Under the pieces are notes generated by a model. The model ran no database searches, was not told where the DNA came from, and saw nothing but the letters and a program-made list of their open reading frames with translations. From a virus (Duplodnaviria; Heunggongvirae; Uroviricota; Caudoviricetes), in the IMG/VR virus record IMGVR_UViG_2778261064_000025: a stretch of 18,722 bases of DNA; one strand, given 5' to 3'. Below, in pieces: positions 1 to 18,722 of this stretch; position 1 is the stretch's first letter, and every line of letters begins with the position of its first letter. Made by a program: the position numbers and the translations under genes.

Positions 1-170
1 ATGATGCAACAGGACTGGCATTCCGCCGACATTATTGCGGTGCTGAAAAAGCGGGGAACGCCTCTGGCGGCACAGAGAAAAACTCATTGCGGAAGCGCTG
101 TAAATATCGCCAGAAATCATCTGGTCCTCAAGGTACTTTGATAGCAAAGGCAAGCTGGCTGGTTCAGTCC
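1..170 (+). pseudogene. Ner/Nlp(SfsB)-family DNA-binding protein gene remnant, frameshifted
   Basis: Frame-1 translation MMQQDWHSADIIAVLKKRGTPLAA matches the N-terminal signature of Ner/Nlp proteins as I recall it (DWH.ADII.GL.K.G). Frame 1 stops at 139-141; further Ner-like similarity appears only in shifted frames (frame 2 PEIIWSSRYFD, frame 3 GPQGTLIAKA). No search run. Confidence 0.4.
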
Positions 171-341
171 GGAGTCTCTCTTCTTGCACTTAAAGAGATG
201 GGAGGATGGGAAACTCTCAAAAAGGTTCAGAGATACGCTCACCTTTCAGCCGGGCATCTCACCGAGCACGCAAGCAAAATCGGCACGATCATAAGTCGCA
301 ATGGCACAAATACGGCACAGGAGGAAGCGTGGTGTATTTAA
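150..341 (+). pseudogene. Tyrosine integrase 3'-terminal fragment (lambdoid-type), no N-terminal domain
   Basis: Frame-3 translation SWLVQSGVSLLALKEMGGWETLKKVQRYAHLSAGHLTEHASKIG... carries the conserved C-terminal region of lambdoid tyrosine recombinases (GGW ... RYAHL with the catalytic Tyr). Upstream in the same frame there is no integrase-like sequence; it merges into the Ner-like remnant. Stop at 339-341. Confidence 0.6.
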
Positions 342-444
342 ATATGGGGTAACTACTTGATTTAAATGGTGCGATAATAGGAAAAAAACAAACAATAAAA
401 ATACATTGATATATAAAGATATTTTCACGTTACATCTTTGGAGA

Positions 445-724: not shown

Positions 725-1012
725 TTACTGTCTCTGGCAATCTTTATCACGATAACGCCTGAAGTACCCTCTCGCTTCCTCATCCATACCAAGAGCCGAA
801 TGAGTCCGCTTAACTGCCTGTCTTAAATCTCCGAATCTGTCTGTAGTTGCTGGTGGGCGTGCCGCCTTACGGATACATTCAGAGCGTCTGTTTGCTGCAT
901 GTTCACGTTCTTTATCGCCATCTGCCAGCATCATGACTTCTGCCCATCGTGCGGCAGCTCTCCGGTATAGCCCTTTTGACTCCAGTTCTTCAGCTTTCCT
1001 GTCCCTTATCAT
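725..1012 (-). CDS. PerC-family transcriptional regulator-like protein (95 aa)
   Basis: ORF track 725..1012. The N-terminus MIRDRKAEELESKGLYRRAAARWAEVM resembles the PerC-family pattern (AE.LE..GL.RRAA.RW) as I recall it from prophage/island-encoded PerC/Pch homologues. Confidence 0.5.
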   Translation of the reverse strand: MIRDRKAEELESKGLYRRAAARWAEVMMLADGDKEREHAANRRSECIRKAARPPATTDRFGDLRQAVKRTHSALGMDEEARGYFRRYRDKDCQRQ

Positions 1013-1048
1013 TTCTGCCTCTCAGATTATATAGATAAGCAAAAAGGT

Positions 1049-1169
1049 GTTGGTTCAGTTGGTTCAGTTGGTTCAATTTGTAAAGATCGTTGTTTTTATT
1101 GTGTTTTTTCTGAAATATTGAACCAACATCAACTCATTTTGAACCAACACAGCCCAGCTCTGAACCAAC
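1049..1169. repeat. Iteron array L: GTTGGTTCA x3 in tandem (1049-1075) plus inverted TGAACCAAC x3 at 1119, 1140, 1161 (21-bp phasing)
   Basis: Counted directly in the sequence. The same 9-mer family recurs in mirrored arrangement at 9509-9619. Confidence 0.75.
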
Positions 1170-1222
1170 AACACAGCGATAGCTTTGTGATTGGTCCGTT
1201 ATTTTCTGGCTGATATTTGAGC

Positions 1223-1253
1223 GTATAACAGTGTTATACAGTGGTATACTGTA
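1223..1253. promoter_or_regulatory. Adjacent palindromes GTATAACA-G-TGTTATAC (1223-1239) and TACAGT-GGTAT-ACTGTA (1237-1253), candidate operator upstream of the 1272 gene
   Basis: Inverted repeats read from the sequence, 20-50 bp upstream of the ORF start. No clean -35/-10 could be assigned. Confidence 0.35.
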
Positions 1254-1271
1254 TGGATATTACTCACTGAT

Positions 1272-1712
1272 ATGGTCTTTGCAATGAGCAAATCTAATCT
1301 GGTCGCGTTCCGCATCCCATCTGAATTGCAGGATGAGTTTAATCGGTCTGTTCTCGCTTCTGGAGGGGATAAAACCTCCTGGCTTGTTGATGCGATTCGC
1401 ATGAAGCTGGGACAGCCGGAAAAGTCTATTGATTCACGAATGCTTGGGCTGGTGGAGCGCATGGAAAAAGCCGCTGCGTCGCTTATTGCCGGAAAGCCGA
1501 ACATCCCACCAAAGCCATATAACGAAACGGCAGTTATAAAGATCATTGCCGATACCATCCGACAGGGATTTGATAATGGGCGTGTGATAGCGGAACGGCT
1601 CAATGAAGCAGGCTACCAAACAAAAGCTGGTAAAGCGTGGGATAAAGACATTTACAGCGCGTGGAAGCGTCAGGGTAACAATATTAAAAGAATCAATACG
1701 CTGCTTCAGTAA
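1272..1712 (+). CDS. Hypothetical DNA-binding protein (146 aa), possible ribbon-helix-helix N-terminus; alternative start at 1284 (MSKSNL)
   Basis: ORF track. The N-terminal segment VAFRIPSELQDEF...SWLVDAIRMKLG looks like a beta-strand plus helices of CopG/Arc-type proteins. The C-terminal IAERLNEAGYQTKAGKAWDKDIYSAWKR resembles recombinase-domain HTH segments. No obvious Shine-Dalgarno. The antisense ORF 1199..1603 looks like low-complexity junk. Confidence 0.5.
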   Translation: MVFAMSKSNLVAFRIPSELQDEFNRSVLASGGDKTSWLVDAIRMKLGQPEKSIDSRMLGLVERMEKAAASLIAGKPNIPPKPYNETAVIKIIADTIRQGFDNGRVIAERLNEAGYQTKAGKAWDKDIYSAWKRQGNNIKRINTLLQ

Positions 1713-1741
1713 TTGATCAGTGTATAAATGATATTTATCGC

Positions 1742-2764
1742 TCAATCGCTCCCTTTCCGCCCTTCAGCTACAGGGTCGTTGTCGGCGATAACAAAACCTA
1801 AGTCCTGAGAGAATCTCTCTCGTGGGAATCCTTTAGCAGGTAAACCCATTGAATCATATCCACATCCGGGAACATTTGGTTTAGAGTCAATAAGGTCTGC
1901 AATTTGCCGAAGCCATGTTGATCCCGGACCAAGTCGTTTAACTAAGTACCAGATAATACAGATCGCGCTAAAAATCCTCTCGCAACTCTCTGGATGGAGA
2001 TTAAGTCCGTCAAAGTATTCATTATCCGGTACTGGAACTCGGGGATGCTTTCTATTCCATATTCTGGAATGGTGAGCGCAACGATTCCTTATGAGATTAA
2101 GGCACTTCAACCATTTTGCAAATGTCTGCTTATTATCAATGCCAAAACGACGTATAATTTTCCCCTGCATATGACCATTAAGCATCGCATAATATTTAGA
2201 CATCTGACCAAAATCCCAGGTCTCCACCGCCACCCAAAATGGAATCTCCTTGCCTTGGCTTCGATGCCATTCAATACAGTCATCTCTGCTTTCGTCTAAT
2301 TTTACTTTTTGCTTATACACCCAATGCTCGAAGGCAGATGAGAATTTTGGATTAATGTATTTTGATGACATGTAGGCAAGTGGATCATTGCGACCAACCT
2401 CATGCGCGATGACTGAACGAACATGAATCTCTATTCTTTCGATAGCATCAATCATCAAAAGACGCAGTTTTTTGTCAAAAAGATATAGATCGTACGTCTT
2501 CTCGAAACTGGTACCAGCAAGAAATCGGTCTGTTCTGTACGAAAGACCTTTATCTGTTGTCGCAATAATTCTTGATGGGTACCAAAAACCTGACAATCGA
2601 TAATATCCAACCTGCAACAGCTTACGTATCGCACGATTTCGATCATTGATAATCATGCCACGTTCAAGTAGCAATCCTAGCAATTCGTGATAGTCCTTAT
2701 GAGGCTTTGCGGCAATCATAGTGGCAAAACAAAAGATAATAAAAGGCCCGACCGTGAAACTCAC
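1742..2764 (-). CDS. Abi_2 family (AbiD/AbiF-like) abortive-infection protein; start uncertain (GTG at 2764 or ATG at 2719)
   Basis: ORF track 340 aa. Contains KPHKDYHELLGLLLERGMII...YYRLSGFWYP and RNRCAHHSRIWNR, matching the Abi_2 family signature as I recall it. Size fits AbiD/F proteins. Confidence 0.7.
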   Translation of the reverse strand: MSFTVGPFIIFCFATMIAAKPHKDYHELLGLLLERGMIINDRNRAIRKLLQVGYYRLSGFWYPSRIIATTDKGLSYRTDRFLAGTSFEKTYDLYLFDKKLRLLMIDAIERIEIHVRSVIAHEVGRNDPLAYMSSKYINPKFSSAFEHWVYKQKVKLDESRDDCIEWHRSQGKEIPFWVAVETWDFGQMSKYYAMLNGHMQGKIIRRFGIDNKQTFAKWLKCLNLIRNRCAHHSRIWNRKHPRVPVPDNEYFDGLNLHPESCERIFSAICIIWYLVKRLGPGSTWLRQIADLIDSKPNVPGCGYDSMGLPAKGFPRERFSQDLGFVIADNDPVAEGRKGSD

Positions 2765-3589: not shown

Positions 3590-4204
3590 GTGAGCAGAAA
3601 AGATACTAAAGAATTGCTAACTATCTGCATGGTGTACTTTTCAATTTATTTTTGTGCATACATGATAGTCCCAGATGAGTTTGAACATGGCAGTATTATT
3701 TATTCCATAACATTCTATTTTTTAGAGCTAACACCAATTTTGGCTATCCTTTTGGCAATACATATTTATTTTTCCTTAAAAAAAGAATCGACTAATTGGG
3801 AGAAGGTATGGAGAGACAGAGGATTTCTAACATCACCTAAAGATGATGCATATGAGAGTGATTTTTCTGACTTTATAACAAACTACTACTCCAGCGAACA
3901 ATTCAAAAATAGACTGTCTGATGTTTGGGAAACAGCAATGTATTCCATAGGGATTATATTATTGATACTTACTGGTATTGCTCAATATGTTTTTAACATT
4001 GACTTATCATTAAATCCTGAAAATTTAATATCGCCATTGATTTTTGGTGAGATATTGATCTTCTCATTCGGAATTTTCTTGAGTGTTGTTCTCTGCTCAT
4101 TATGCAAGCTACTGACTAACAGGTATCCAGGTGAAGCAAGGAGAGCAAGAAAGGCAAATCCATATTATCTTTTATTTCCTAATGGAGACAGCAGAGATAT
4201 CTAA
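3590..4204 (+). CDS. AT-rich multi-pass membrane protein (204 aa), unknown function
   Basis: ORF track. GTG start preceded by GGGGG about 6 nt upstream. Several hydrophobic helices (e.g. LLTICMVYFSIYFCAYMIV, LTPILAILLAIHIYF, AMYSIGIILLILTGIAQYVF, ILIFSFGIFLSVVLCSLC). Visibly lower GC than flanking genes. Convergent with the 701-aa gene. Confidence 0.6.
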   Translation: MSRKDTKELLTICMVYFSIYFCAYMIVPDEFEHGSIIYSITFYFLELTPILAILLAIHIYFSLKKESTNWEKVWRDRGFLTSPKDDAYESDFSDFITNYYSSEQFKNRLSDVWETAMYSIGIILLILTGIAQYVFNIDLSLNPENLISPLIFGEILIFSFGIFLSVVLCSLCKLLTNRYPGEARRARKANPYYLLFPNGDSRDI

Positions 4205-4223: not shown

Positions 4224-6329
4224 TTATTGAGCTTCTTTTTGTGATGCCTGTGCGACTCTGGTGAGCGATTGTGTGACCGTACTGATCGCTCTGTCATATG
4301 CTGTGCTACCTTTTGGCGTATTTGCCAGACGTAACAAGGCATTTCGTATAACAGGGCTTTCGTATGCCTTCGCTGCTCCGCCTACGGCACCAGCAGCAGG
4401 AACAACAAACGCAGCCGTTTTTAGCATCCCCGCTAATACTGCTGCGTTTATGATGCCACCACCAACTAACAAACCATAAAGCTGCTGACCATTTAAGTTT
4501 TGAACGTTCGCTTTTGCCGCGTGTCTTGTATCGTTGAGGTATTTAATAACGCCGTCCAGTTCCTTTCCATGTACGCCTTTAAAGAAAGTTGCTGATTGCT
4601 TCCTGTTCCGGTGTAACGCATTAATAAACTTCTCAACACTGATATTTCCAGACGGATCAGTCGCCTTATCTACAGCATTCTGAACTATGGCTGCTCGTGC
4701 GTTTTGCCTACCATTGTCATCCAGAAGCCTGTAAAGCTGAGAACGTTCTGATGGGTTTTGGCTAAAAACGAGTTTTGTTACATCCTCAGGCGTGGCCTTG
4801 CCGCTGGCTATTGCCTTTTGAACGCGCGTTCTTCCCATCATGTCATTAAATTTAGACCATGAGCGATCAACCCTTGCCATATTAATGGCTTCGTCTGCTC
4901 CAAGATTTTTGGCTACGGCTTTTTTCATATCCGCCGTATATGCCTTGTAGATAATATCGCTGGCTTTCTGGAGCGTATCTTTATCAACAGTGTCAGATGA
5001 CGCCATAAATCGCTTTCGAAGATCGGTTCTGTTTTCCCTCGCCAGACGCAGGTCATTTGGTCCGCTGGTGATATCGTCTTTAAATTGCTGCAAGACTTTT
5101 ACCGCGGCTCTATCCTGAGATTTGCCCGGGCGGCTTAACACGGCAATCTGATTGTCGATAGCTTTTACCGTGTTTGAGAGATCGACAGGGGTATCCCCCA
5201 TAGCGTCAATTATGCGGTTATATCGCTTTCCTGCTGCCTCAATGAATTTTTGTTGCCCTTTAGTCGCAGATTCATAAAGCTGTTTATCAGAAATGCCACC
5301 CAGACCATCGCTAAATGTTCTGACTAAATTTTCTCGTGCTTGTTGTTGATTCAGCCGATTCTTACCGGTTCCAAAAAAAGGAACTCTTTCGCCTAATGTC
5401 TGAGCCTGACTCTGCATAAAGGTTTTATCTTTTAGCATGTCACTGGTCATTAACGGCAGATTTCTTTCCGATGCAAAGTCGACAGCAGCCTTTGCTTCAG
5501 GCGACATATCACCACGAACAGCCCTCGAAACCGCACTCGCTGTATTTTCCAGCCCCTTACCAATACCACCAATGCCAGCAGAAATTACCGTTTGTAACGG
5601 ATCAATATCTTCTCCACCAGCAAGGCTAGTGGCTCCCTGTAGTGCTAAATCTGTAGCTGCTGATTTTCCTATGGCACCAAGCACCGTTCCAGCCCTGCCC
5701 GCTGGTGTAAACGCCAGCGCATTAGCCAGAAACGATGCCACGTCTTGCGGCGATAAACCCGGCTTGTTCAGAGCATAATCACCGGATGGCAGGGAAACGA
5801 TAGTGTTACCCTTCTCATCCTGCCTTAATTTCGCTCCCATGCTCTGAAGAATCTTTTCCTGAGATGCGTCAGAGCCGAAAAGTTGAGACCATCGAGCTTT
5901 TAGAGCATCCATGCTGAGTGAGGTTAACTCTGGGGCAAGGTCGACATTTTGCAGTCTCTCCATCTCTGGAGTCATTCGGCTTTCGCCTGTTATAGCATCG
6001 CGCATCGCAGCCCCAAGACTGGCTCCCTGTTCTGCTGAACGCTCAAGCCCCTCTCTTTGCTGAGTAGCTAACTTTGCATACCCTGACGCAAGAGAATTAT
6101 CAGATGATGTATGTTGAATATTTTGAGTTGCTGATTGGGATCGGTCTATTTCATTCGTTGATGGTAGTGGATAGGCAGCATAAAAAGCCTGCTTAGCCTG
6201 CTCTACACTTTCTCCGGCTTGCGGGGCCACGACTTCATTGAAGTATTGCTCCTGAGCCTGCGCTTTTTGTTCTGGTGCTAACGCCTGATACTGTGGAGAG
6301 GCGATAACATCTTTCCATGCTTTAGCCAT
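4224..6329 (-). CDS. Putative DNA-ejection (injection) protein, P22 gp16-like by size and position (701 aa)
   Basis: ORF track. Last gene of a four-gene translationally coupled operon (TAATG overlap at 6329). Ala/Gln-rich with a Gly-rich hydrophobic segment near the C-terminus (LYGLLVGGGIINAAVLAGML...). Assignment is by analogy to the P22 14-7-20-16 order; no search run. Confidence 0.5.
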   Translation of the reverse strand: MAKAWKDVIASPQYQALAPEQKAQAQEQYFNEVVAPQAGESVEQAKQAFYAAYPLPSTNEIDRSQSATQNIQHTSSDNSLASGYAKLATQQREGLERSAEQGASLGAAMRDAITGESRMTPEMERLQNVDLAPELTSLSMDALKARWSQLFGSDASQEKILQSMGAKLRQDEKGNTIVSLPSGDYALNKPGLSPQDVASFLANALAFTPAGRAGTVLGAIGKSAATDLALQGATSLAGGEDIDPLQTVISAGIGGIGKGLENTASAVSRAVRGDMSPEAKAAVDFASERNLPLMTSDMLKDKTFMQSQAQTLGERVPFFGTGKNRLNQQQARENLVRTFSDGLGGISDKQLYESATKGQQKFIEAAGKRYNRIIDAMGDTPVDLSNTVKAIDNQIAVLSRPGKSQDRAAVKVLQQFKDDITSGPNDLRLARENRTDLRKRFMASSDTVDKDTLQKASDIIYKAYTADMKKAVAKNLGADEAINMARVDRSWSKFNDMMGRTRVQKAIASGKATPEDVTKLVFSQNPSERSQLYRLLDDNGRQNARAAIVQNAVDKATDPSGNISVEKFINALHRNRKQSATFFKGVHGKELDGVIKYLNDTRHAAKANVQNLNGQQLYGLLVGGGIINAAVLAGMLKTAAFVVPAAGAVGGAAKAYESPVIRNALLRLANTPKGSTAYDRAISTVTQSLTRVAQASQKEAQ

Positions 6330-7750
6330 TAATCACCCCATAGTGAAGAAAAGTTACTGCTGGCTGCTGGCTGTGATACCTGCTCAGATTGCGGCAATGT
6401 CTGCGACGAAGAAGAAGTTCCTCTGTCAACTGCTGAAATAACCCGCAAAGCATCATAAGCTCGACCAGAAGCAGCTTTCAGCGAATTGAACTGGTTTTCC
6501 ATCTTCCGGCGCTTGGTATCAATGGTTTTTGTGGAATCACCAGGCTGAGGGAAATACATTTGATAATATTTGGACATTTCAGCTGGTACGATGGCTGCCC
6601 CTGTTTCCTGACGGAGTATTGCCATTATTGCGTCATTAGCATTAACAACGTATTGCTGTTCTGTTGGGCTGAGCGTTAAGTTAGCCAGCGTCCCATTACC
6701 CAAAGCATTATTAATGATCGCCACTCGCTGTGGGCTAAGCTGGTCTTTCAGTGTATCTATTGAATCAAGAGCATCCCTAACCCTGTATGCAAATCCAGCA
6801 GCTTTTTTAGCCCCTTCTGGCGACTTTTCCATGATCTTTTGGGCTGTTGGCAAAGCTATTGGACGAAACCCATCTCCAGATATTGGCTGGTTTAGTTTTC
6901 CCTGCTCTTCACTTCCGTCTGTGTAGTATTTTGTGACAGTGCCATCATCGTTTTCTCTAACACTCATTAATTTTTTGGCGTTTGTATTAATTCCAGCCGC
7001 TGCCGCAAATGCCGCCGCCCCCTCTGGATCCGCCTTTAACATTTGAGCGTACTGATTGTAATTCTGCATTGCTGCTGTTGGTGCATATGCTGACGTTAAC
7101 GCATTTGCTCGGCTAATATCCTGCCCTCTCGCCTGAAGTGCTTCGCCAGCCTGATTGCTGCGGATTGTTTCTGCCAACTTGCCACGCTCAATATCCCGAC
7201 CTTCCATTTGATCTTTGATATCGAAATACTTCTCATGACCGAGAGAAAACAGTGCCATACTACCAGCAAGCCGCTGGAACCCCTGTGGATCATTAACATG
7301 CATTTCGGCAACAGACTCAGGAGAAATTCCCAAGCGACGCATTTCATCTTCGTTATCTGCTATGAATTTTCCAAATGCCCCAGTTCCGAGCGAAGATGCG
7401 ATTTGAGCACTAGTCGCAAGATGACCAATAGAATTTCTCTGGTCGTCATCAATAAAGCCCATCCCTTTCTGAACGCTTTCAAATTCTTCTGGATACTCAG
7501 AAATAAGACTGCGCATTTTGTTTCTGTCTCCAGACTCAAAAGCCCCGGCATATGCTTTCTGAAACTCTGCTTTACGCTGTTGTTGACGTGCCGGCTGATT
7601 AATCTCAGCAACGCCTCTTAGCCCCTGTAGCGCCATTAAACCTACGTTTGGCTGCTGCTGATACTGCACAGGCTGAGGAACGGAAGAACGAGGAGCATTA
7701 TCATTTTGCGGTGCCATGCTAGGCAGCCCGCCAAGTTGCCATGTCGCCAT
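6329..7750 (-). CDS. Putative DNA-ejection protein, P22 gp20-like by size and position (473 aa)
   Basis: ORF track. TAATG start/stop overlaps at both ends. 473 aa compared with ~471 aa for P22 gp20 as I recall it. Gln-rich N-terminus. Confidence 0.5.
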   Translation of the reverse strand: MATWQLGGLPSMAPQNDNAPRSSVPQPVQYQQQPNVGLMALQGLRGVAEINQPARQQQRKAEFQKAYAGAFESGDRNKMRSLISEYPEEFESVQKGMGFIDDDQRNSIGHLATSAQIASSLGTGAFGKFIADNEDEMRRLGISPESVAEMHVNDPQGFQRLAGSMALFSLGHEKYFDIKDQMEGRDIERGKLAETIRSNQAGEALQARGQDISRANALTSAYAPTAAMQNYNQYAQMLKADPEGAAAFAAAAGINTNAKKLMSVRENDDGTVTKYYTDGSEEQGKLNQPISGDGFRPIALPTAQKIMEKSPEGAKKAAGFAYRVRDALDSIDTLKDQLSPQRVAIINNALGNGTLANLTLSPTEQQYVVNANDAIMAILRQETGAAIVPAEMSKYYQMYFPQPGDSTKTIDTKRRKMENQFNSLKAASGRAYDALRVISAVDRGTSSSSQTLPQSEQVSQPAASSNFSSLWGD

Positions 7751-8427
7751 TAGAATCCAAGCCCCCCAACAAGACCAATAAGCCCACCACCAATAGCGCC
7801 GGCCGCAGTTCCTATTCCAGGAACAACGGAACCAAGTTGCGCACCCGCTAAAGCGCCTGATGCTGCCCCACCAATACCACGCGCAAGACTGGATGGCTGC
7901 TGCGCCTGACCTGCACGAATAGCGCCAAGCCCCTGCAAGAGTTGTCCGGTATTATTGGCGTAGTTTTGCCCTGCCGTTGCCTGCCCTGATGCCGCATTCA
8001 TCCCGACATTTAGCAGGTTTCCATAATTTTGCATTTGCCCACTAAGCCAATTGTTATAAAGCATGGGCGCAATGGAAGATAACTGGTTACTGGTAGCTGT
8101 TGAGCCAAGCCCCCCGGTAGCTTCTGCTGAGACAAGGTTCTGATAACGGGCCTGATCTGCCTGTGTTTTATATAAACCAGAACCAAAGAAATCATTCGCG
8201 GCTTTATTCTGCCCTTCCAGAGTCATCAGTCCTTGTAGTTGTTGTAAAGCAGGCAATCCGACTTCTGCATACGGCTTGAGATTATTCATCACCGTATTCC
8301 ACTGCTCGCGCTGCAAATCAATTGCCTGCTGCTGGGCCTTCGCCTGAGCTTTAGAGGCACCACCATCACCGCCTTTTTCGTATACGGCACGATTGAGATG
8401 TTTATGAGCTATATGGGTAATTAACAT
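7750..8427 (-). CDS. Putative DNA-ejection protein, P22 gp7-like (225 aa)
   Basis: ORF track. N-terminal ...NRAVYEKGGDGGASKAQAKAQ resembles the P22 gp7 leader region (...PEKGGKGG...) as I recall it. C-terminal Gly-rich hydrophobic tail GIGTAAGAIGGGLIGLVGGLGF. 225 aa compared with 229 aa for gp7. Confidence 0.55.
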   Translation of the reverse strand: MLITHIAHKHLNRAVYEKGGDGGASKAQAKAQQQAIDLQREQWNTVMNNLKPYAEVGLPALQQLQGLMTLEGQNKAANDFFGSGLYKTQADQARYQNLVSAEATGGLGSTATSNQLSSIAPMLYNNWLSGQMQNYGNLLNVGMNAASGQATAGQNYANNTGQLLQGLGAIRAGQAQQPSSLARGIGGAASGALAGAQLGSVVPGIGTAAGAIGGGLIGLVGGLGF

Positions 8428-8882
8428 TCGCTGAATTCCTTATATTGTTGCCGAGTTAACTGATAAAGCGTTACGCCGACGGGTTTACCACATCTGATAT
8501 AAGCATCATCAAGGTGACCAACACGGGTAGCGCCAAGCAAACGGATAATTGCCCGTCCGTATTTCGTGGTGTCAGGAACCATAGTGATGCTGTTAAGGAA
8601 TGGTGAGTTTTCGAGAAGCCATTTGCAGAATAATCGATGTCCTTGCAGTGCATATTCACCACGGAATCCGGGGTCGTACACCGCATGGCATTCAACAACG
8701 CTATGCCAGAAGTTACGCACTTCATGAACGCCAGCCAGCACTAATCCTTCGTAGATGCCGAGATATACCGCATCAGGCTTGATGTAGTACGTGTGCCCCG
8801 GCTCAACAATATTTTCGGTATTGCCTGGCTCGTTAAGAAAGGCCTGTAATCGCACAGGGTTATCAATAAATTTTAGTTCCAT
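8421..8882 (-). CDS. Hypothetical protein (153 aa), position and size consistent with P22 gp14-like / DUF2824-type protein
   Basis: ORF track. First large gene of the operon; its stop overlaps the start of the next gene (ATGTTAA). Family assignment is from memory only. Confidence 0.45.
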   Translation of the reverse strand: MELKFIDNPVRLQAFLNEPGNTENIVEPGHTYYIKPDAVYLGIYEGLVLAGVHEVRNFWHSVVECHAVYDPGFRGEYALQGHRLFCKWLLENSPFLNSITMVPDTTKYGRAIIRLLGATRVGHLDDAYIRCGKPVGVTLYQLTRQQYKEFSEC

Positions 8883-8898
8883 GCGATGCCATCCATTT

Positions 8899-9060
8899 TC
8901 ACATACAGCCTGCCAGCGCCTTATCTATTAACCCTCGTGCAATTTCATGCAGAGTTGGCGCTACTCCAATTCCTGATTTTTTACGCTGCTCTTCCTGAAT
9001 TTTCTTTATCGCTTCCATTTGCTTCTCACTTATCAATACCGGCTTTACTGAAATAGCCAT
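8899..9060 (-). CDS. Small ORF (53 aa) MAISVKPVLISEKQMEAIKKIQEEQRKKSGIGVAPTLHEIARGLIDKALAGCM, possible small DNA-binding protein
   Basis: Hand-translated; below the 60-aa cutoff of the ORF track. ATG at 9058-9060 on the minus strand, preceded by GGGGG (plus-strand CCCCC 9065-9069). Ends 16 nt before the 153-aa gene. Confidence 0.45.
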   Translation of the reverse strand: MAISVKPVLISEKQMEAIKKIQEEQRKKSGIGVAPTLHEIARGLIDKALAGCM

Positions 9061-9073
9061 AACGCCCCCTTAG

Positions 9074-9099
9074 AACTGTATAAAACAACAGTTATTATA
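9074..9099 (-). promoter_or_regulatory. LexA-box-like CTGT-ATAAAACA-ACAG (9076-9091) immediately downstream of a perfect minus-strand -10 TATAAT (9094-9099)
   Basis: Read from the sequence. Matches the CTGT-N8-ACAG SOS-box pattern with an AT-rich spacer. The -35 is weak (TGAATA-like), so the promoter call is tentative. Confidence 0.4.
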
Positions 9100-9155
9100 G
9101 TTTCACAAATCGCAATATTCATCATCGTAATTGCAAAATATGAAACAAATAGCAC

Positions 9156-9187
9156 AAAAAAATGCCACCGCTCAGTAGCTGGTGGCA
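9156..9187 (-). terminator. Rho-independent terminator on the minus strand (stem TGCCACC/GGTGGCA with inner GCT/AGC pairs, followed by a 7-nt U-run)
   Basis: Plus-strand 9156-9187 reads AAAAAAA-TGCCACC-GCTCAGTAGCT-GGTGGCA. On the minus strand this is a hairpin followed by TTTTTTT. Lies downstream of the primase gene and iteron array, upstream of the 9094-9099 promoter. Confidence 0.55.
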
Positions 9188-9508
9188 TCGTTCTGTGTGT
9201 CAGGTTTTGACAGGTTTTTTATGGACTCTAAAAACTATATTTATGGTGTCGCATTACTCTTCACGGCAGGCGCTTTTCAGTTCTGCCCTTGCTTCTGGCT
9301 CCATTGGTAATTTGATTCGCGATCAGCTATGCGGATGGTTTGCTGAACAGGCATAACAACTTCTCAGAGGCTGTTTTCTGAACTACGAAAATTTCGTAGT
9401 GCTCACTTTCAAAAACGTCACGCCCTTGTACACAGGATTTTACGAAAGTCTCGTAAAACACTCTCTGATGCCAGCCAGGTGTTGTGCGCATCAATTCAGT
9501 CACATTGT

Positions 9509-9619
9509 GTTGGTTCAAAATACCGTGTTGTTGGTTCAGTGTTGGTTCAATAAAAAGAATAAAATCCTTATAAAACAATACTCTTTACAAATTGAACCAA
9601 CTGAACCAACTGAACCAAC
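9509..9619. repeat. Iteron array R: GTTGGTTCA at 9509, 9530, 9541 plus TGAACCAAC x3 in tandem (9593-9619); mirror image of array L
   Basis: Counted directly in the sequence. Immediately downstream of the primase-helicase stop (9645). Confidence 0.75.
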
Positions 9620-9644
9620 ACCTTTTCTACGCACATGAAGAAGC

Positions 9645-12404
9645 TCATTCTTCAGATGAGTTATAATCTCCTGGCTGGTAATTGAGTACATAAACGTTTA
9701 TTTGTCGTCCCTGAATACGTGGTGATTTTCTTTGGTATCCACGACCGCTGTTTGGTGGGGTTAGCATCCCGGCTTTTTTCAACACTTCAGCAAACTGTTT
9801 TGCGTTGAAACCACATGCGATCTCCTTTTCAAATGTGGCCGGGAATGTGTAGAAAATCATTGGGCTTTCGTCATGTTCTCCACGCTGACGGTATCCGGCT
9901 AAATCTTTGATGGGCAAATCTGCCGGGCTGTATGGAAATGGTGCAAAACGGCTAAGCCCATAGGCATTAAGAAATGCCTCCGTTTGTTCAATAATCTGCT
10001 GATGCTCTTTGTTACCTGTGCCGAACTCGCGCAACCATGCGTTATAGCTGTGCTGTATCGCATCACGGCATGTCTGAGCATCCCAGCCTGTTACAACCTC
10101 GCCTAACAACAATGCGGCCTCCAGAATGGCAAATCGCGCGGCTACACGGTGAACCTGCTCACCATAATCGGATGGGATCAGGCTTCTCCATCTGCTTTCG
10201 CAGTCGCGAACGGTTTTAATAGCCTGTTGCTGGTGGTCTGCCAGCCATTTAATCCACTCACGCCCGGACGCGCCGTGGTGATGCTGGTAAGCGTCTTTCA
10301 GTGCGTCTGCGTGCTGTTTTCCGTTCTGGTAATCGTGAAAGCGTACTGCTTTACTCAACGGAATATTCAGCAGTCGCACCAGTTGCCCGGCTTTGGTTTT
10401 TCGCCCGGAAGTAGCGATAAATGTTTCTAAATCCATTTCTCCGGTGCTGATTGCCACTGTACGCCAGCGTTTTAGATCCCGGTTTCCACCATCTTTAGCG
10501 CCTTGCAGTTTCCCTACACCGTTAAATAACGCATAGGCAGACTGTGAAACGCTGACAGGATCAGCGCCCTGACCAACTTCATCAAGCGGCATTAGTCCGT
10601 CATTGTGGGCGGCGGCCTCATTTGCCAGCCCCAGCGCGGTTCCGTACCACGTCAGCCGCAGTAAATCAGGGTTGCCGTATAAGCTGCTCGCCACGTTTGC
10701 CGTGGTGGTCTTACCTGCGCTCGACTGCTCATAGAAATGAATGCCGAACCCGTCAGCGCCCACCAGCCCAATCAATGGCGCTGCCAGTGCTGCGCCGATC
10801 CCGGTCATCATTGAATAGTTACCAAAGGCCAGACGCGCCACGTTATCACGCCAGCTTTTCGCGCTCCCTGAGACGGTATATCCGGCTGCGGCTGAGCTTC
10901 TCCCGCTGAACAGCACAGGATTTTCAGGTGTTCCGATGATTTCCCCATCAGGCATGATGTACGCTCCGCATTGCCAGCCAGTGGCATGAGCAACACGCCA
11001 CAATTCACGAGAGCCACTGCGTTGTAGCCAGTCTGCCAGTATTGCTCTGAGGCTGCTTTTGGTCGTGACATTTACCCCACCAGCTTTAAGTGTGCGCCAT
11101 CCTTCACGTTCACCAATATCAGCCAGTGGAATGGCAGCGGTTGTCGGCGTTTCAGAACCAAACGACAGCCAGCGAAGAATGAGATACTGGTCTTTATCGT
11201 CTCTGCCAGTACCGATAACGCTTAACGGAGAACATAACCAGCTTTCGTTATTGATGATTTCTCCACTCTGGCTGTCAGCTCTCGGAGATACCCAATAAAT
11301 ACCATCCTCGCGGCTTTCTATTCTTGGTTTCAGTGGGTCGGTATCCATAACCTTAAAATCGCTTCCCTCAATGGTCTGTGGCTCCTGTTTCACGCCATTA
11401 CCCTGTGGTTGGTACATTGACTTATTGAACGCTTCTGTGGCGCATTTAATGCCGTGTTTTTGGTGGTAATCATTCCAGTCTGCTTTGTGATCTGTCGGGG
11501 GTAATGCCACCCATCCAGAAACAGATAAAGCTGCTTTTTCTGCTGCTATTCTCCCCGTGTTTTGTCTTCCTTCGCTGTGGTCGTTATCCGCAGCAATGAT
11601 GATTTGTGCTGAAGGAAATTTATCCCGCAGTACCTGGGCGACATATAACAGGTTCCCGGCATCAATCGCCGCCACTGTCAGCGCCTCTGGACGAATTAAA
11701 TGGGCAGATAATGCCGTTGCCAGCCCTTCTGCGATTAAGATGCTCTGTGTTGTTTCTGGTGCGTTTATGGCGTGATATGCCCCCCGCTTTGCTGAACCTG
11801 TCAGGAGTCTTTTTTCACCATGTGAGGTAATAGTCTGTGCTGCTGTGACTGCGCCGGATTTATCCACCAGCGCCAGCAACAGAGATCCATCGGGCAACAC
11901 GGGGAATGTAAAATCACCTACCCCTTTCGCAACCAGATAATCAGATTTGCCGTTTACAGCCTTTCTGCGCATGTCATCAAACTGACGGGAAAACGTATCC
12001 CGTCTTTGTTGTTCGTCCTTCTCTGCCCTTTTCAGGCGCTCCTGTTCGCGTCGCTGGCGCTCGGTTTCCAGTTGTTCCCGTTTCTGGCTGGTGGCTTCTG
12101 GTGTTTCCGTTGTCCGGTAATCAATACCCAGAACATCAGCGGCAAGAAGCGCCGCCTCTGTTGTGTCGCAGTTATTTACGCGTTTAATTAAATCCAGCCC
12201 ATCACCAGCGCCGCACTGATTACAGATGAAGCTACCGCGCCCGTTGTCATCGAACCGGAATCGATCTTTGCCCCCACATGCAGGGCAGGGAGCATGACGG
12301 CGCGGAGAGTCAGGGACATTTATGTTCAGGCAGCCCAGCACATGAGGCCAGTTGTTTTCAGACGCACTGATAACCTGACGGATAAGATCAATGTTTCGCA
12401 TCAC
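9645..12404 (-). CDS. Primase-helicase, P4 alpha-like (zinc-binding primase N-terminus + TOPRIM + P-loop NTPase), 919 aa
   Basis: ORF track. N-terminal CPACGG...FICNQCGAG zinc-finger pairs, TOPRIM-like ILIAEGLATALS ... IIIAADNDHSEG, Walker-A-like SSAGKTT in the C-terminal half. Domain order typical of P4 alpha / D5-type island primases. Confidence 0.85.
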   Translation of the reverse strand: MMRNIDLIRQVISASENNWPHVLGCLNINVPDSPRRHAPCPACGGKDRFRFDDNGRGSFICNQCGAGDGLDLIKRVNNCDTTEAALLAADVLGIDYRTTETPEATSQKREQLETERQRREQERLKRAEKDEQQRRDTFSRQFDDMRRKAVNGKSDYLVAKGVGDFTFPVLPDGSLLLALVDKSGAVTAAQTITSHGEKRLLTGSAKRGAYHAINAPETTQSILIAEGLATALSAHLIRPEALTVAAIDAGNLLYVAQVLRDKFPSAQIIIAADNDHSEGRQNTGRIAAEKAALSVSGWVALPPTDHKADWNDYHQKHGIKCATEAFNKSMYQPQGNGVKQEPQTIEGSDFKVMDTDPLKPRIESREDGIYWVSPRADSQSGEIINNESWLCSPLSVIGTGRDDKDQYLILRWLSFGSETPTTAAIPLADIGEREGWRTLKAGGVNVTTKSSLRAILADWLQRSGSRELWRVAHATGWQCGAYIMPDGEIIGTPENPVLFSGRSSAAAGYTVSGSAKSWRDNVARLAFGNYSMMTGIGAALAAPLIGLVGADGFGIHFYEQSSAGKTTTANVASSLYGNPDLLRLTWYGTALGLANEAAAHNDGLMPLDEVGQGADPVSVSQSAYALFNGVGKLQGAKDGGNRDLKRWRTVAISTGEMDLETFIATSGRKTKAGQLVRLLNIPLSKAVRFHDYQNGKQHADALKDAYQHHHGASGREWIKWLADHQQQAIKTVRDCESRWRSLIPSDYGEQVHRVAARFAILEAALLLGEVVTGWDAQTCRDAIQHSYNAWLREFGTGNKEHQQIIEQTEAFLNAYGLSRFAPFPYSPADLPIKDLAGYRQRGEHDESPMIFYTFPATFEKEIACGFNAKQFAEVLKKAGMLTPPNSGRGYQRKSPRIQGRQINVYVLNYQPGDYNSSEE

Positions 12405-14371: not shown

Positions 14372-15431
14372 TGGTTTCCCCCGTTTTTACTGGCATTTCG
14401 CCACCTTCCAGCAGGAAATGAACGTCACGAACGGCGAGATCCAATATCGCGAGTAACGCCTTCAGTCTTTCGTCTCGTGAGGGAGAGTTGCTCACCAGAA
14501 TGTCGTTAATCACTTCTGTCAGTGTGATGATCTGGCTTGTGCGTTCGAGGGGATCCATATGCACATCGTAGGTTTTAATCATGTGCCACCTCCATGCGGA
14601 TACGACCAGCAAAAAAGCAGACGTGATCGCGCACCAGAGAACGGCGAGCATCGCGTTCAGACTCGGCAGCAATATGATGAATTTTGGCGGTAATTGTCGG
14701 GCAATCGCGGCGAACTGCGGCGATAATCCAGATAAATTGCGGTTTTTGGGTAGGGGTAGTAGCCAGCATGTGGCAGCCTCCATTCGATAGCATGTAACGC
14801 TACCACCGGAAACGCCAATTTCGCTGGTGGTAGCCCAGACAGGGTTGGCGTAACCGGCTCGAATGGATACCGGCGCTTCCGAAGAAGCCCCTGCCTGAGC
14901 CACCATTGATTGACAAAGGCGCTGGATTATACACCAACGCCCAAAAAATGGGTGAGTCAGACCTACGACATAAAAAAAGACGCTCGGCGCGTCATATGTC
15001 GCCATTCGATTTACCAGGACGCCAATCCCGGCACCCGTTTTATGAGGTGCCTTATAACCATAAACCGTGTTGCCGCATAACGGCAAGCTCTTTTTTATGG
15101 ACTCCGAAAACTCACTATTGGAAGAACCAGAAGCACAGTACATCGCGCTCATTTCGTTAACGTCACGCGCGTGGACGAAGGTTTTTGTGGAGTCACTACG
15201 CGAGCAGAGAAAGCCATCTACGACCAGAAATTCTCTGGCGCAGCCGCTGACCTTCTCAACGCTAACACCATCGACCGTAATTTCTGACATAGTTAAGGCA
15301 TCCGCTCCTACCACCAGCAAATGATAAACTTTGCTTGTATCTGCTGTATTAATGCCTGACTTTGCTGTCATATTGCTGGATTTTGGCGACATACCAGCCA
15401 GTGAAAATGTCTTCTTCTGGGCGGTTAGCAT
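14364..15431 (-). CDS. Long ORF (355 codons), hypothetical; may instead be two genes, with a separate 72-aa product starting at ATG 14580-14582
   Basis: Continuous stop-free frame of 1068 nt. Start at 15429-15431 preceded by GGAGG and overlapping the DUF4222-like stop (ATGCTAA). A second in-frame ATG at 14580-14582 has its own GGAGG 6-7 nt upstream. The middle section translates to unconvincing sequence. Confidence 0.35.
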
Positions 15432-16445: not shown

Positions 16446-16877
16446 TTAGGCGGCGTTAAACGCGTCCGGGTAGAGTTTCAGAATGTCGGCAATTTCCTGC
16501 TGAGAAAGTCCGTTGTGATCATTTATGTTCGCAAGATGGTTAATATGAGTGATCACTTTCAGAACATCACCACGGCAGGAGAAACGGTAGCGAAGGTGTG
16601 TTCCGATACCATCAGGATTCTTTTCGTCGATACGCTCCAGAGTGATTCCGAGCTGGCGTTCTAACTCTGTTGCATAGTTACGACCAGAAGACAGACGGCA
16701 GTAGCGAAGAATGTCATTTTCTGTCCATCCCTCTATACCAGTACGCAGCATATAGACTCGGGCACGATGCTTTTTCGGCGTGCGCTTTGGTGCTTGAAGG
16801 GATTTTGTCAGGGGCGTAACATCAGATACGCGAATATCTGAATTAGCCGCCTGTAATGGGCGGTTTTTCTTTTCCAT
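16446..16877 (-). CDS. Hypothetical protein (143 aa), basic N-terminus
   Basis: ORF track. Start overlaps the AlpA stop by 1 nt (coupled). No family recognised. Confidence 0.55.
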   Translation of the reverse strand: MEKKNRPLQAANSDIRVSDVTPLTKSLQAPKRTPKKHRARVYMLRTGIEGWTENDILRYCRLSSGRNYATELERQLGITLERIDEKNPDGIGTHLRYRFSCRGDVLKVITHINHLANINDHNGLSQQEIADILKLYPDAFNAA

Positions 16878-17080
16878 CAGGCCACCTCGTCTCTAGATTC
16901 TAATATACACTTCTCAATCCATTCATCTATTTCAGACTCAACAAAAGCAATTGCCCGACTTCCAATTTTTACCTGTTTAGGGAACCTCCCCTGACTAATA
17001 AGACGATAAATCCATGCTTTGCTATAACCAGTTCGCCTTTGAACTTCAGAGAGACGAATTAATGAATTGTAATTAGCCAT
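16877..17080 (-). CDS. alpA: AlpA-family phage transcriptional regulator / excisionase-like DNA-binding protein (67 aa)
   Basis: ORF track. Pattern ...RTGYSKAWIYRLISQGRFPKQVKIGSRAIAFVESEIDEWI matches the AlpA/Xis-type HTH family. Sits one gene away from the P4-type integrase, as is typical. Confidence 0.8.
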   Translation of the reverse strand: MANYNSLIRLSEVQRRTGYSKAWIYRLISQGRFPKQVKIGSRAIAFVESEIDEWIEKCILESRDEVA

Positions 17081-17507: not shown

Positions 17508-18722
17508 TCATGCGTGTTTTTCAAACACCATATGCACCACATTTCCGCCATGCTCGAGAGAATCCATATAGTCGGCATACCATTGAAGCATCTCCCGCCG
17601 TCCATCCAGATATTGCGCATGGTTGTATGTGCCACGAATTGAGTTCTTATCAACGTGAGCGAGCTGCGTTTCTATCCACGCGGTGTTATAGCCCTGCTCA
17701 TGCAAAATCGTGCTCATAGTGTGTCGGAACCCATGACCAGTTACACGTCCAGCGTAGCCAATGCGCTTAAACACTTGGTTTATGCTGGCCTCACTCATTG
17801 TTTTCCTTGGATCATTGCGCCCGGGAAACATAAGAGGGTAATTGCCTGTTATTTCTCTAATCTTCCCAATAAGCGAAAGAGCCTGCTCAGACAATGGCAC
17901 AATATGAGGCCGCCGCATTTTCATACGTGAAGCGGGTATCTCCCATATAGCCTTGTTGAAATCAATTTCATCCCATAATGCGCCACGTAGTTCGCCAGTT
18001 CGCAAGCCGGTGATAATCAGTAGACGAGCCGCCATAACAACCAATGCGCTTCCTGAGTAACTGGATAATGCCTTGAAAAAATCAGGTAATTCTTTGGTCG
18101 TAAGGAAAGGGTAATGATTAGATTCATGGCCTTGCATCGCGCTAGTAAGGTCTGGTGCAGGGTTATACTCTGCGCGACCAGTGACTATTGCATAGCGGAA
18201 AACTTCCCCGCACCGCTGCCTCACTTTTTTGGCTTTTTCTGTCGCACCGCGCCCCTCGATGCGCCGCAGCACATTCAGAAGTTCAAGTGGTTTGATTTCG
18301 GCGATTGGTTTTTTGCCAATGTAAGGGAACACATCTTTGTTGAAGGCTTCGAGGATGTCTGAAGCATAACCAGCAGACCATTTTTTTAATTTGCTGCTGT
18401 GCCACTCAAGGGCAATATCTTTGAAGGTGTTGTTTAACTGCGTTTCCCGGGCAATCTTTTCCTCTCGTTTCGCTTCCATCGGATCGATACCACCAGCGAT
18501 ACCTCTTTTCGCATCTTCACGTTTTGCCCGAGCATCGGCTAGAGTAACCTCAGGATACACACCTAGTGCCAATAGCTTCTCTTTACCAGCTACACGATAT
18601 TTAAGTCGCCAGTATTTACCTCCATTAGGTTTTACCAAGAGATACAAACCGCCACCATCGGCCAGCTTGTAAGCCTTCTCTTTTGGCTTGGCTGTGTCTA
18701 TTTGACGGGCATTGAGTTTCAC
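17508..18722 (-). CDS. P4-family tyrosine integrase; 5' end at or just beyond the window edge
   Basis: ORF track 404 aa. N-terminal KLNARQIDTAKPKEKAYKLADGGGLYLLVKPNGGKYWRLKYR is the classic P4-type integrase N-terminus. C-terminal HGFRHTMSTIL...LAH...Y catalytic motifs. The apparent start is a GTG at the very last codon of the window. Confidence 0.9.
   Translation of the reverse strand: MKLNARQIDTAKPKEKAYKLADGGGLYLLVKPNGGKYWRLKYRVAGKEKLLALGVYPEVTLADARAKREDAKRGIAGGIDPMEAKREEKIARETQLNNTFKDIALEWHSSKLKKWSAGYASDILEAFNKDVFPYIGKKPIAEIKPLELLNVLRRIEGRGATEKAKKVRQRCGEVFRYAIVTGRAEYNPAPDLTSAMQGHESNHYPFLTTKELPDFFKALSSYSGSALVVMAARLLIITGLRTGELRGALWDEIDFNKAIWEIPASRMKMRRPHIVPLSEQALSLIGKIREITGNYPLMFPGRNDPRKTMSEASINQVFKRIGYAGRVTGHGFRHTMSTILHEQGYNTAWIETQLAHVDKNSIRGTYNHAQYLDGRREMLQWYADYMDSLEHGGNVVHMVFEKHA

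Follow-up and report, generated by a model that had tools for sequence, protein, structure and literature searches.

What is a set of podovirus ejection genes doing in an island that carries no other virion genes? The question is raised by an 18,722-nucleotide stretch of phage DNA (IMG/VR record IMGVR_UViG_2778261064_000025, Caudoviricetes; this whole stretch is called the window below), in which an earlier reading of the sequence alone had picked out an operon resembling the ejection-protein genes of phage P22. Here we find that positions 4224-9060 of the window encode a complete P22-type gp14-gp7-gp20-gp16 ejection set, and that this set belongs to a phage-inducible chromosomal island (PICI). 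Comparison with related islands points to a dedicated slot for genes of this kind and, at even odds in our judgement, to their use in exploiting a helper phage.

Results

The operon encodes a complete P22-type ejection set

Five consecutive open reading frames (ORFs) occupy the minus strand of the window from 4224 to 9060, downstream of the primase gene, as seen in the ORF list and its translations. A 53-aa leader gene (8899-9060) heads the operon. It is followed by genes encoding homologues of P22 gp14 (153 aa, 8421-8882) and of the ejection proteins gp7 (225 aa, 7750-8427), gp20 (473 aa, 6329-7750) and gp16 (701 aa, 4224-6329). Translational coupling had been proposed for all five genes; it can be maintained for the last four because their ORFs overlap by 7, 1 and 1 nt, but the leader gene, while close, ends 16 nt short of the 153-aa gene and does not overlap it.

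Profile searches and pairwise comparisons agree on the identity of these four proteins, and thereby bear out the assignment made in the sequence-only reading. The gp14 homologue matches Pfam DUF2824 (1.5e-61) and phrog_651 (1e-66), the gp7 homologue matches P22_gp7 (PF25688, 6.6e-73), the gp20 homologue matches Inj_translocase (PF16928, 1.8e-57) and, over its full length, phrog_917 (5e-111), and the gp16 homologue matches the 'DNA transfer protein' family phrog_770 across residues 19-700 (1.2e-161). By BLASTP, identity to the P22 proteins is 23% for gp14 (E 2e-8), 56% for gp7 (E 5e-54), 37% for the N-terminal half of gp20 (E 5e-44) and 30% over 482 aa for gp16 (E 5e-53), and the gene order is that of the P22 annotation, 14-7-20-16. 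In P22, gp14 is a head-morphogenesis factor whose gene adjoins the ejection-protein genes. The 153-aa protein is 84% identical to gp14 of phage Kapi1, the closest phage relatives of the gp20 homologue are found in the APSE phages (53%), and the gp16 homologue is 67% identical to its counterparts in phages N7 and HZ41. The translations also contain the two low-complexity features that had been described earlier, namely a hydrophobic, Gly-rich C-terminus in the gp7 homologue and a Gly/Ala-rich hydrophobic segment at about residues 617-655 of the gp16 homologue.

The operon lies within a PICI of the EcCIMP1 type

The element that carries this operon is a Gram-negative PICI of the EcCIMP1 type, recognizable by its integrase, AlpA, pri-rep gene with adjacent origin, attachment (att) repeats and length of 18.5 kb. 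Its backbone is encoded on the minus strand and begins with a thrW-specific, P4-type tyrosine integrase identified by profile scan (17508-18722, the window ending at its start codon) and AlpA (16877-17080; Pfam 7.4e-20). The primase/replicase (9645-12404) contains zinc ribbon, TOPRIM and DUF927 domains according to Pfam and PHROG, and directly 3' of its gene lies a replication origin with three direct and three inverted GTTGGTTCA iterons and an AT-rich spacer (9505-9621). The att core TCCTATTATC (373-382, minus strand), identical to that reported for EcCIMP1, marks the island boundary distal to thrW. Pfam and PHROG further recognized AntA, Ash, Abi_2 and PerC among the island ORFs, the others being unassigned.

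In complete E. coli genomes the 18.5-kb element sits between thrW-proA and pao/yagU with TCCTATTATC as a direct repeat at both ends, and other E. coli strains have this backbone between yicC and dinD, accompanied by a different integrase. The presence of one backbone at two chromosomal sites with different integrases indicates that the element moves. Pfam and PHROG scans of the window's ORFs yielded no capsid, portal, terminase, tail or lysis gene, as had been noted before, and no portal, coat, scaffold, terminase, gp4/gp10/gp26 or tailspike gene was found in the island or its flanks, in contrast to prophages L005, L008 and L013-L018. That the operon might be a piece of a larger P22-like prophage, a possibility raised together with the original description, is ruled out: att cores bound the 18.5-kb element, host genes flank it at two sites, and two integrases are in use. 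The label 'P4-type' fared less well. The integrase, AlpA, Ash and primase are P4-like, but scans of 20 ORFs with Pfam and PHROG gave no match to Psu, Sid, Delta (Ogr-like) or Epsilon, so that a P4-like satellite is ruled out as the family and the element is classed as a PICI. The usual PICI attribute of lacking structural genes holds only in part, as gp7, gp20 and gp16 are virion components in P22.

Of 5426 complete E. coli genomes searched for the island, 123 contain at least 80% of the window and 181 at least 80% of the ejection module, while the junction of origin and leader occurs in 329; a GTDB scan with gp7 returned at least 14 loci. One related record, L103 (NZ_CP148430.1, circular, 12,152 bp, deposited as a plasmid), comprises int, AlpA, primase, leader and PerC and looks like an excised or autonomously replicating island copy. 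Outside the att core, window positions 1-372 are remnants of another element, with a truncated Ner/Nlp-like helix-turn-helix ORF (1-141) and a C-terminal tyrosine integrase fragment (~87-341), and most E. coli genomes align to the window only from position 299 or 365 on. The thrW tRNA-Thr site is also used by P22-like prophages, as seen for HS1 (L105, E. coli HS 291741-333340) and in the attP of P22 (L006, ~21293-21344). Because the site is common to helper and island, the two would compete for it or sit in tandem.

The island is an allelic variant of EcCIMP1

The backbone of the window closely matches NC101 island L004, with identities of 99.8% for the integrase, 100% for AlpA, 99.6% for the primase, 100% for the 53-aa leader, 98% for gp14 and 98.7% for gp7, and the protein accessions of L004 are those of EcCIMP1. 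EcCIMP1 is a PICI of E. coli MP1 (Pick, Stadel and Raivio, ISME J 2025, PMC11773190) that excises only upon induction of the P22-like phage Kapi1, requires AlpA as its master activator, and is transduced by Kapi1 at low frequency. EcCIMP1 leaves the Kapi1 titer undiminished, raises the superinfection immunity of Kapi1 lysogens, and reportedly aids helper replication via an excisionase; a Kapi1-like prophage was present in only 2 of 21 carriers (PMC11773190). The same paper states that the island has no structural genes, colors the genes of this operon as 'DNA transfer' or DUF2824, and suggests a role in packaging. The satellite nature proposed for the window is thus upheld by a sibling with a 98-100% identical backbone that has been seen to excise and to be transduced. 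The accompanying view that a satellite with ejection genes would be unusual is only partly sustained, since this family and its 'DNA transfer' genes had already been published, which makes the case less novel than supposed. The evidence for satellite status and helper type comes from these sibling-island experiments and from the packaging-site mimic described below.

Judged by sequence, the window island is an allelic variant of EcCIMP1. The two share the thrW site, the att core, the backbone proteins and the position of the operon, and both have a PerC-family gene, the products being only 54% identical. They differ in gp20, where 48% identity is restricted to the N-terminus (473 aa in the window, 439 aa in EcCIMP1), and in gp16, where the 701-aa protein of the window is unrelated to the 906-aa protein of EcCIMP1 with its lytic transglycosylase domain. 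The window island has AbiD and a SieA homologue in addition; tblastn with either the window or the P22 protein detected no sieA in EcCIMP1.

The ejection genes are under selection and exchange alleles

All four ejection genes and the leader are intact in the window, and the module is under strong purifying selection, including between island copies. Ratios of nonsynonymous to synonymous substitution (dN/dS) between E. coli and Leclercia islands were 0.031 for the leader, 0.073 for gp14 and 0.067 for gp7, and 0.067 and 0.084 for EcCIMP1-type alleles of gp20 and gp16, with dS of at least 1 throughout and primases only 68% identical; part of this deeper divergence may predate transfer from phages to islands. 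Between two E. coli islands, the four genes differ by 7 nonsynonymous and 37 synonymous changes. The module is retained together with the island-specific leader in Leclercia and in two diverged lineages (primase 68-75% identical).

The gp20 and gp16 alleles look functional; they have been swapped between near-identical islands and exchanged with phages. Backbones that are 99% identical bear unrelated gp20/gp16 pairs, of 473/701 aa in the window and of 439/906 aa, with the transglycosylase domain, in EcCIMP1 and NC101. A P22-like prophage at argW with a full virion gene set has a gp16, annotated as frameshifted, that shares 95% identity over 604 aa with the gp16 of the window. As expected for mosaic exchange, DNA identity to phages is restricted to gp14 and the gp20/gp16 junction; the conserved segments joining the ejection genes share 86-97% identity with many phages. 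The idea that island alleles match those of the proven helper can be discarded: EcCIMP1 and Kapi1 share 83% identity in gp14 and 57% in gp7, but 26% in gp20 and 24% in gp16.

Related islands carry other virion genes in the same slot

A sample of 80 IMG/VR loci whose primases are 52-100% identical to that of the window was examined for what follows the leader; in at least 52, the leader is present at the head of an operon whose cargo varies. The P22-type gp14/7/20/16 set follows in 6 loci, and gp20 and gp16 by themselves in 2. The most frequent arrangement, in about 18 loci, is a 109-aa protein with a full-length tape-measure protein and then a tail-completion-like protein; this tape-measure protein matches Pfam TMP_3 (2.7e-51) and phrog_1107 (6e-174) and is 38% identical over its full length to tape-measure proteins of Klebsiella siphophages. 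An epsilon15-like triad of 837, 632 and 925 aa is found in 8-9 loci. The 925-aa protein shares 92% identity with epsilon15 gp17, and its two companions correspond to epsilon15 gp15 (a transglycosylase) and gp16 by size, order and PHROG family; there is also a related triad with an SLT-domain protein. Further combinations comprise a tape-measure/lytic tail protein with a baseplate hub and a homologue of the small terminase subunit (TerS; 8 loci), a phrog_2276 tape-measure protein with a phrog_817 protein and a hub (4-5 loci), two small proteins with a 1046-aa phrog_24 tape-measure protein (3 loci), and hub or phrog_817 (tail-fibre-like) variants (4 loci). The tape-measure proteins in this slot belong to at least three PHROG families. 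Examples of alternative cargo are L028 10947-15990, L038 8837-16244, L050 15062-22643, L060 11908-16905, L062 10176-, L074 11722-15657 and L095 15212-19493.

By homology, all identified cargo belongs to the envelope-penetrating part of a virion or to that ejected along with the DNA, with a small terminase added in one type. The regions downstream of different modules have small island genes in common (clusters C1, C4 and C16), and many of these contigs are 14-20 kb long and start at the integrase, which together indicate that the modules are internal to the islands rather than parts of adjacent prophages. The tape-measure-type island had no match in complete E. coli genomes, so that islands of this type come from other Enterobacterales.

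A conserved leader and control region precede the cargo

The control region of the operon (9061-9200, minus strand) contains a terminator, a -10 element and an SOS-box-like palindrome, and it aligns across 48 related loci regardless of cargo. A strong intrinsic terminator (9153-9197) follows the primase/origin region, insulating the operon's own promoter, and a TATAAT -10 element (9094-9099) has no good -35 element. Directly downstream of TATAAT lies the palindrome CTGTTGTTTTATACAG (9076-9091), the sole exact CTGT-N8-ACAG in the window, a pattern for which matches arise in 42 of 200 shuffled sequences. Because TATAAT lacks a -35 element and is overlapped by CTGT-N8-ACAG, the promoter looks repressed rather than constitutive, and we hypothesize that LexA may control the operon.

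At 45-100% identity (cluster C0), the 53-aa leader opens the corresponding operon of at least 52 related islands. A single-sequence AlphaFold2 model shows an extended N-terminus and two helices (predicted local distance difference test score, pLDDT, 78). No match was obtained in Pfam (E up to 10, 14 homologues), in a PDB profile search, or with Foldseek on the AlphaFold2 model. We suspect a ribbon-helix-helix-like regulator, a guess from the strand-helix-helix pattern that none of the searches supports. Many relatives have one to four extra conserved genes, sometimes PerC-like, between primase/origin and leader (L007 6719-9106; Lec_152, Lec_179, Lec_331); the E. coli islands have none there.

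The island contains a predicted mimic of the P22 packaging site

Two features, a SieA homologue beside the operon and a packaging-site mimic at a distance from it, had gone unmentioned in the sequence-only reading, whose feature list is extended here. Positions 15177-15283 (plus strand) are a 107-nt copy of nt 268-374 of P22 gene 3 (terS), with 88% identity (94 of 107 nt, E 8e-36), and the homology starts exactly at the first base of the annotated 22-bp P22 packaging (pac) site. We predict that this segment, which is antisense to the Ash ORF and falls inside its N-terminal part, mimics the P22 pac site. It is also found in EcCIMP1 and the other E. coli islands, and at L101 24071-24177. The diverged islands with an ejection module, L007, L051 and L053, retain only a core of about 30 nt, GAAGATTTTTGTGGRGTCACTACGCGAG, each at an unrelated site downstream of gp16 (L007 15726-15753, L051 21168-21195, L053 18227-18254). 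Among the 104 loci compared, the exact core pattern occurs in nine: eight ejection-module islands and L021, which shares their backbone but lies on a contig that ends after the primase. The pattern is absent from the tape-measure-type and hub-type islands and from the prophages in this set. Natural variation among P22-type terS pac regions encompasses this core.

TerS of Kapi1 differs in its N-terminal domain, and no match to the mimic was found in Kapi1 DNA; the mimic fits P22-type terS and not that of Kapi1. A mismatch of pac mimic and Kapi1 TerS may explain the low transfer of EcCIMP1 by Kapi1. Adjoining the mimic, window positions 15090-15114 match exactly 25 nt of terS of the P22-like prophage L005 (29571-29595), whose TerS is of a type unlike that of P22; the match is in opposite orientation relative to the terS sense strand. 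This could be a candidate second pac-like site for another type of helper.

A SieA homologue and variable defense genes flank the module

A plus-strand gene at 3590-4204, predicted from its similarity to encode a 204-aa inner-membrane superinfection-exclusion protein of the SieA family, adjoins the gp16 gene in convergent orientation, in the same place as sieA in P22. By BLASTP the product is 29% identical to P22 SieA (8e-8) and 34% identical to the experimentally tested SieA of prophage HS1 (2e-9), with an RYPGEA motif (NRYPGEA) inside both alignments, and it weakly matches phrog_7745. The SieA family has a conserved cytoplasmic FxRYPxEAxxFNK motif, and its gene lies between the homologues of genes 16 and 9 (PMC10883804). 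All sieA-like genes examined in detail in that study were in P22-like prophages; the sieA homologue of the window, unlike these, sits in an island.

Beyond the SieA homologue lies a variable accessory end (725-2764, minus strand) with AbiD/Abi_2 and PerC that differs between islands. In the window it contains AbiD/Abi_2 (1742-2764, minus strand; Pfam/PHROG and PADLOC), a 146-aa ORF (1272-1712, plus strand) and a PerC-family regulator (725-1012, minus strand; Pfam/PHROG). The variable cargo stretch between gp16 and PerC is occupied by AbiD here (1272-2764) and by an ImmA/IrrE pair or other genes elsewhere, including a second AlpA-like gene in EcCIMP1 (L003 15369-17982, L004 7564-11974). AbiD was the sole PADLOC match; neither the ejection genes, the SieA homologue nor an island tape-measure protein matched a model, and a known defense system is therefore ruled out for the ejection genes.

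Discussion

A possible role in exploiting the helper virion

Our best explanation of the operon, to which we give an even chance of being right, is that it constitutes the helper-exploitation, or virion, module of an EcCIMP1-type PICI that parasitizes P22-like phages. Helper induction, acting through AlpA and possibly through LexA cleavage at the SOS-like box, would switch the operon on. The gp14-like factor and the three ejection proteins would then enter helper procapsids, as in P22, where they are taken up before DNA packaging, and helper terminase would use the pac mimic to initiate headful packaging of concatemeric island DNA. The resulting particles would deliver island DNA through a trans-envelope conduit that is wholly or partly encoded by the island. 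We infer both the incorporation of the island's ejection proteins into virions and any benefit from it. The benefit is the least certain step. It may be control over entry, in the form of escape from SieA-like injection blockers in recipient lysogens; a wider range of recipients or the co-injection of ready-made satellite proteins are other candidates.

That the slot is a hijack operon and not a site of random cargo is argued by the same leader and promoter preceding virion-related genes in 52 related loci. P22 injects approximately 12 gp7, 12 gp16 and 30 gp20 molecules, which form the trans-periplasmic conduit (PMC8402733). SieA blocks injection, and the mutations that escape it lie in gp16 and gp20. 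The ejection proteins of P22 can be replaced by very different ones, and foreign ones work in P22 hybrids; tape-measure proteins are the analogous targets of HK97-type exclusion. Together, these observations make control of entry into injection-blocking lysogens plausible. Judging by the cargo of the relatives, the strategy appears to be general, with the satellite bringing the DNA-delivery part and taking the rest of the virion from its helper. In its widest form, which we put forward tentatively and with less confidence than the role of the P22-type operon, the proposal is that in this enterobacterial PICI family each island carries ejected DNA-delivery proteins matching the morphotype of its helper (P22-type, epsilon15-type triad, siphovirus tape-measure with small partners, or tape-measure with hub), behind one conserved leader and promoter, in place of capsid remodelling or terminase redirection, that these are built into helper virions, and that the satellite rather than the helper would thus decide how and into which cells its DNA is injected, for example bypassing SieA or HK97 gp15-like exclusion in helper lysogens.

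Several observations weigh against this proposal. The helper already provides ejection proteins, which leaves the benefit without an explanation, and since loading precedes DNA, the island could not reserve its own proteins for its own particles. The module also seems dispensable for maintenance, having been lost in part or wholly in L025 and L027, where the leader (87% identical, ~13342) is followed by gp20 and gp16 with no gp14 or gp7, and in L103, where only an N-terminal gp20 fragment is left. The position of the SOS-like palindrome is conserved, but its canonical spacing is restricted to islands of the E. coli type and a small number of others, and the form in most relatives is CTG-N9-CAG, which is one base shorter. 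The remaining points concern immunity. The region downstream of pri in PICIs is a hotspot of immune genes, among them Tai (PMC11364771), the neighbors of the operon in the window are defense genes (SieA and AbiD), and EcCIMP1 adds to superinfection immunity against Kapi1. Moreover, most of the island-bearing genomes among those listed have no second P22-type ejection module at the DNA level, and Kapi1-like prophages are rare among EcCIMP1 carriers (PMC11773190).

Alternative explanations

These last points lead to the main rival, an immunity module, which we consider rather unlikely. Here the ejection, tape-measure or hub proteins would act in the resident cell against P22-like phages, either by blocking the incoming conduit or by being mis-incorporated, so that progeny become non-infectious or sensitive to the island's SieA and sister cells are protected. 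The immune hotspot, whose Tai systems act on virion assembly (PMC11364771), the adjoining SieA homologue and AbiD, and the scarcity of resident P22-like prophages all suit such a role. So does the heightened immunity conferred by EcCIMP1, in which tblastn found no sieA, as does the location of sieA in the window next to one particular pair of gp20/gp16 alleles, these being the proteins on which SieA acts. A decoy, however, would need neither a full co-adapted set with the gp14 factor nor an allele 95% identical to that of a prophage with a full virion set. The module is accompanied by the pac mimic and, within one conserved operon in relatives, by a TerS homologue; its promoter looks repressed; and PADLOC recognizes nothing in it. 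The unchanged Kapi1 titer in the presence of EcCIMP1 argues against a poisoning role towards the helper. To our knowledge, P22 ejection proteins carry no signal peptides that would take them to the periplasm from inside the cell.

An improbable alternative is that the module serves the helper, as a mutualistic reservoir of alleles that recombine into co-resident P22-like phages or complement them phenotypically. The phage-like junction segments are suited to recombination, foreign ejection proteins function in P22 hybrids, and EcCIMP1 has been reported to assist helper replication (PMC11773190). Such a reservoir leaves the dedicated promoter, the leader and the association with pac unexplained, and it is compatible with the exploitation of helper virions rather than exclusive of it.

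Very improbable, finally, is a passenger or remnant, that is, a 14-7-20-16-sieA prophage fragment captured by recombination of which only sieA, or nothing, is selected: capture is plausible in view of the shared thrW site of P22 and HS1 prophages, the exact P22 order with sieA included, and the truncation or pseudogene annotation of some copies (one island gp16 among the latter), but purifying selection extends to comparisons between island copies, the module persists with its island-specific leader in Leclercia and two diverged lineages, whole alleles have been replaced with the module still complete, sieA is absent from many islands that retain the ejection genes, and parallel modules for other virion types fill the same slot.

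Relation to known phages and satellites

The block of ejection genes and convergent sieA agrees with P22 in the order, orientation, sizes and homology of all five genes. It differs in lacking the upstream gp26/gp10 and downstream immI/tailspike genes, in having its own promoter and the 53-aa leader, in residing in a satellite, and in protein identities of only 23-56%. Among satellites, capsid-forming PICIs (cf-PICIs) build their own capsids and connectors and borrow helper tails. They resemble the window family in encoding some virion parts and taking the rest from a helper, but the division of labor would differ, with the window family taking capsids and tails and bringing only the ejected DNA-delivery proteins. 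Operon I of the Staphylococcus aureus pathogenicity islands (SaPIs) is controlled by LexA. Like it and the PICI packaging modules (TerS, Rpp, Cpm), the operon described here is a dedicated one downstream of pri and origin that would be switched on with the helper, and one island type of the family has a TerS homologue in the equivalent operon. The window operon differs in having no terminase or capsid-size gene, and its packaging specificity seems to come from the cis-acting pac mimic elsewhere in the island.

Tai genes (PMC11364771) likewise occupy the PICI region downstream of pri and concern helper virion components, but Tai blocks tail assembly, with escape mutations in tail proteins, and the window proteins are full-length homologues of virion components. 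Satellite phage P4 has in common with the island a P4-type integrase by a tRNA gene, an AlpA/Vis-like regulator, an Ash domain, a large primase and defense cargo. It differs in Psu, Sid, Delta and Epsilon, which were not detected in the window, and in its helper, which is P2 rather than a P22-like podovirus.

Significance

Full-text literature searches found only the EcCIMP1 paper and nothing linking satellites with ejection or tape-measure proteins. The EcCIMP1-like kind of PICI and its 'DNA transfer'-like genes are thus already published. The literature searched contains no account of the genes as a complete P22 14-7-20-16(-sieA) block, of the selection and allele swapping that this block shows, of the pac mimic, or of the family-wide occurrence of ejection, tape-measure or hub cargo behind one conserved promoter. 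The annotation of EcCIMP1 as having no structural genes needs correcting, and the pac mimic predicts that efficient helpers will be phages with a P22-type TerS rather than Kapi1. The satellites described so far hijack capsid size, terminase specificity or late transcription, or build heads in the case of cf-PICIs; none has been described as supplying ejected proteins. If the proposed role is correct, these islands (EcCIMP1 with Kapi1, or the window island with P22) would provide a tractable system for the recruitment of foreign ejection proteins into procapsids. DNA entry would become a trait under satellite control, with a bearing on which recipients acquire satellite-borne defense, virulence and resistance genes and on how superinfection exclusion by SieA, acting on gp20 and gp16, shapes gene flow. 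It could also help to explain why ejection and tape-measure proteins rank among the most mosaic of phage genes.

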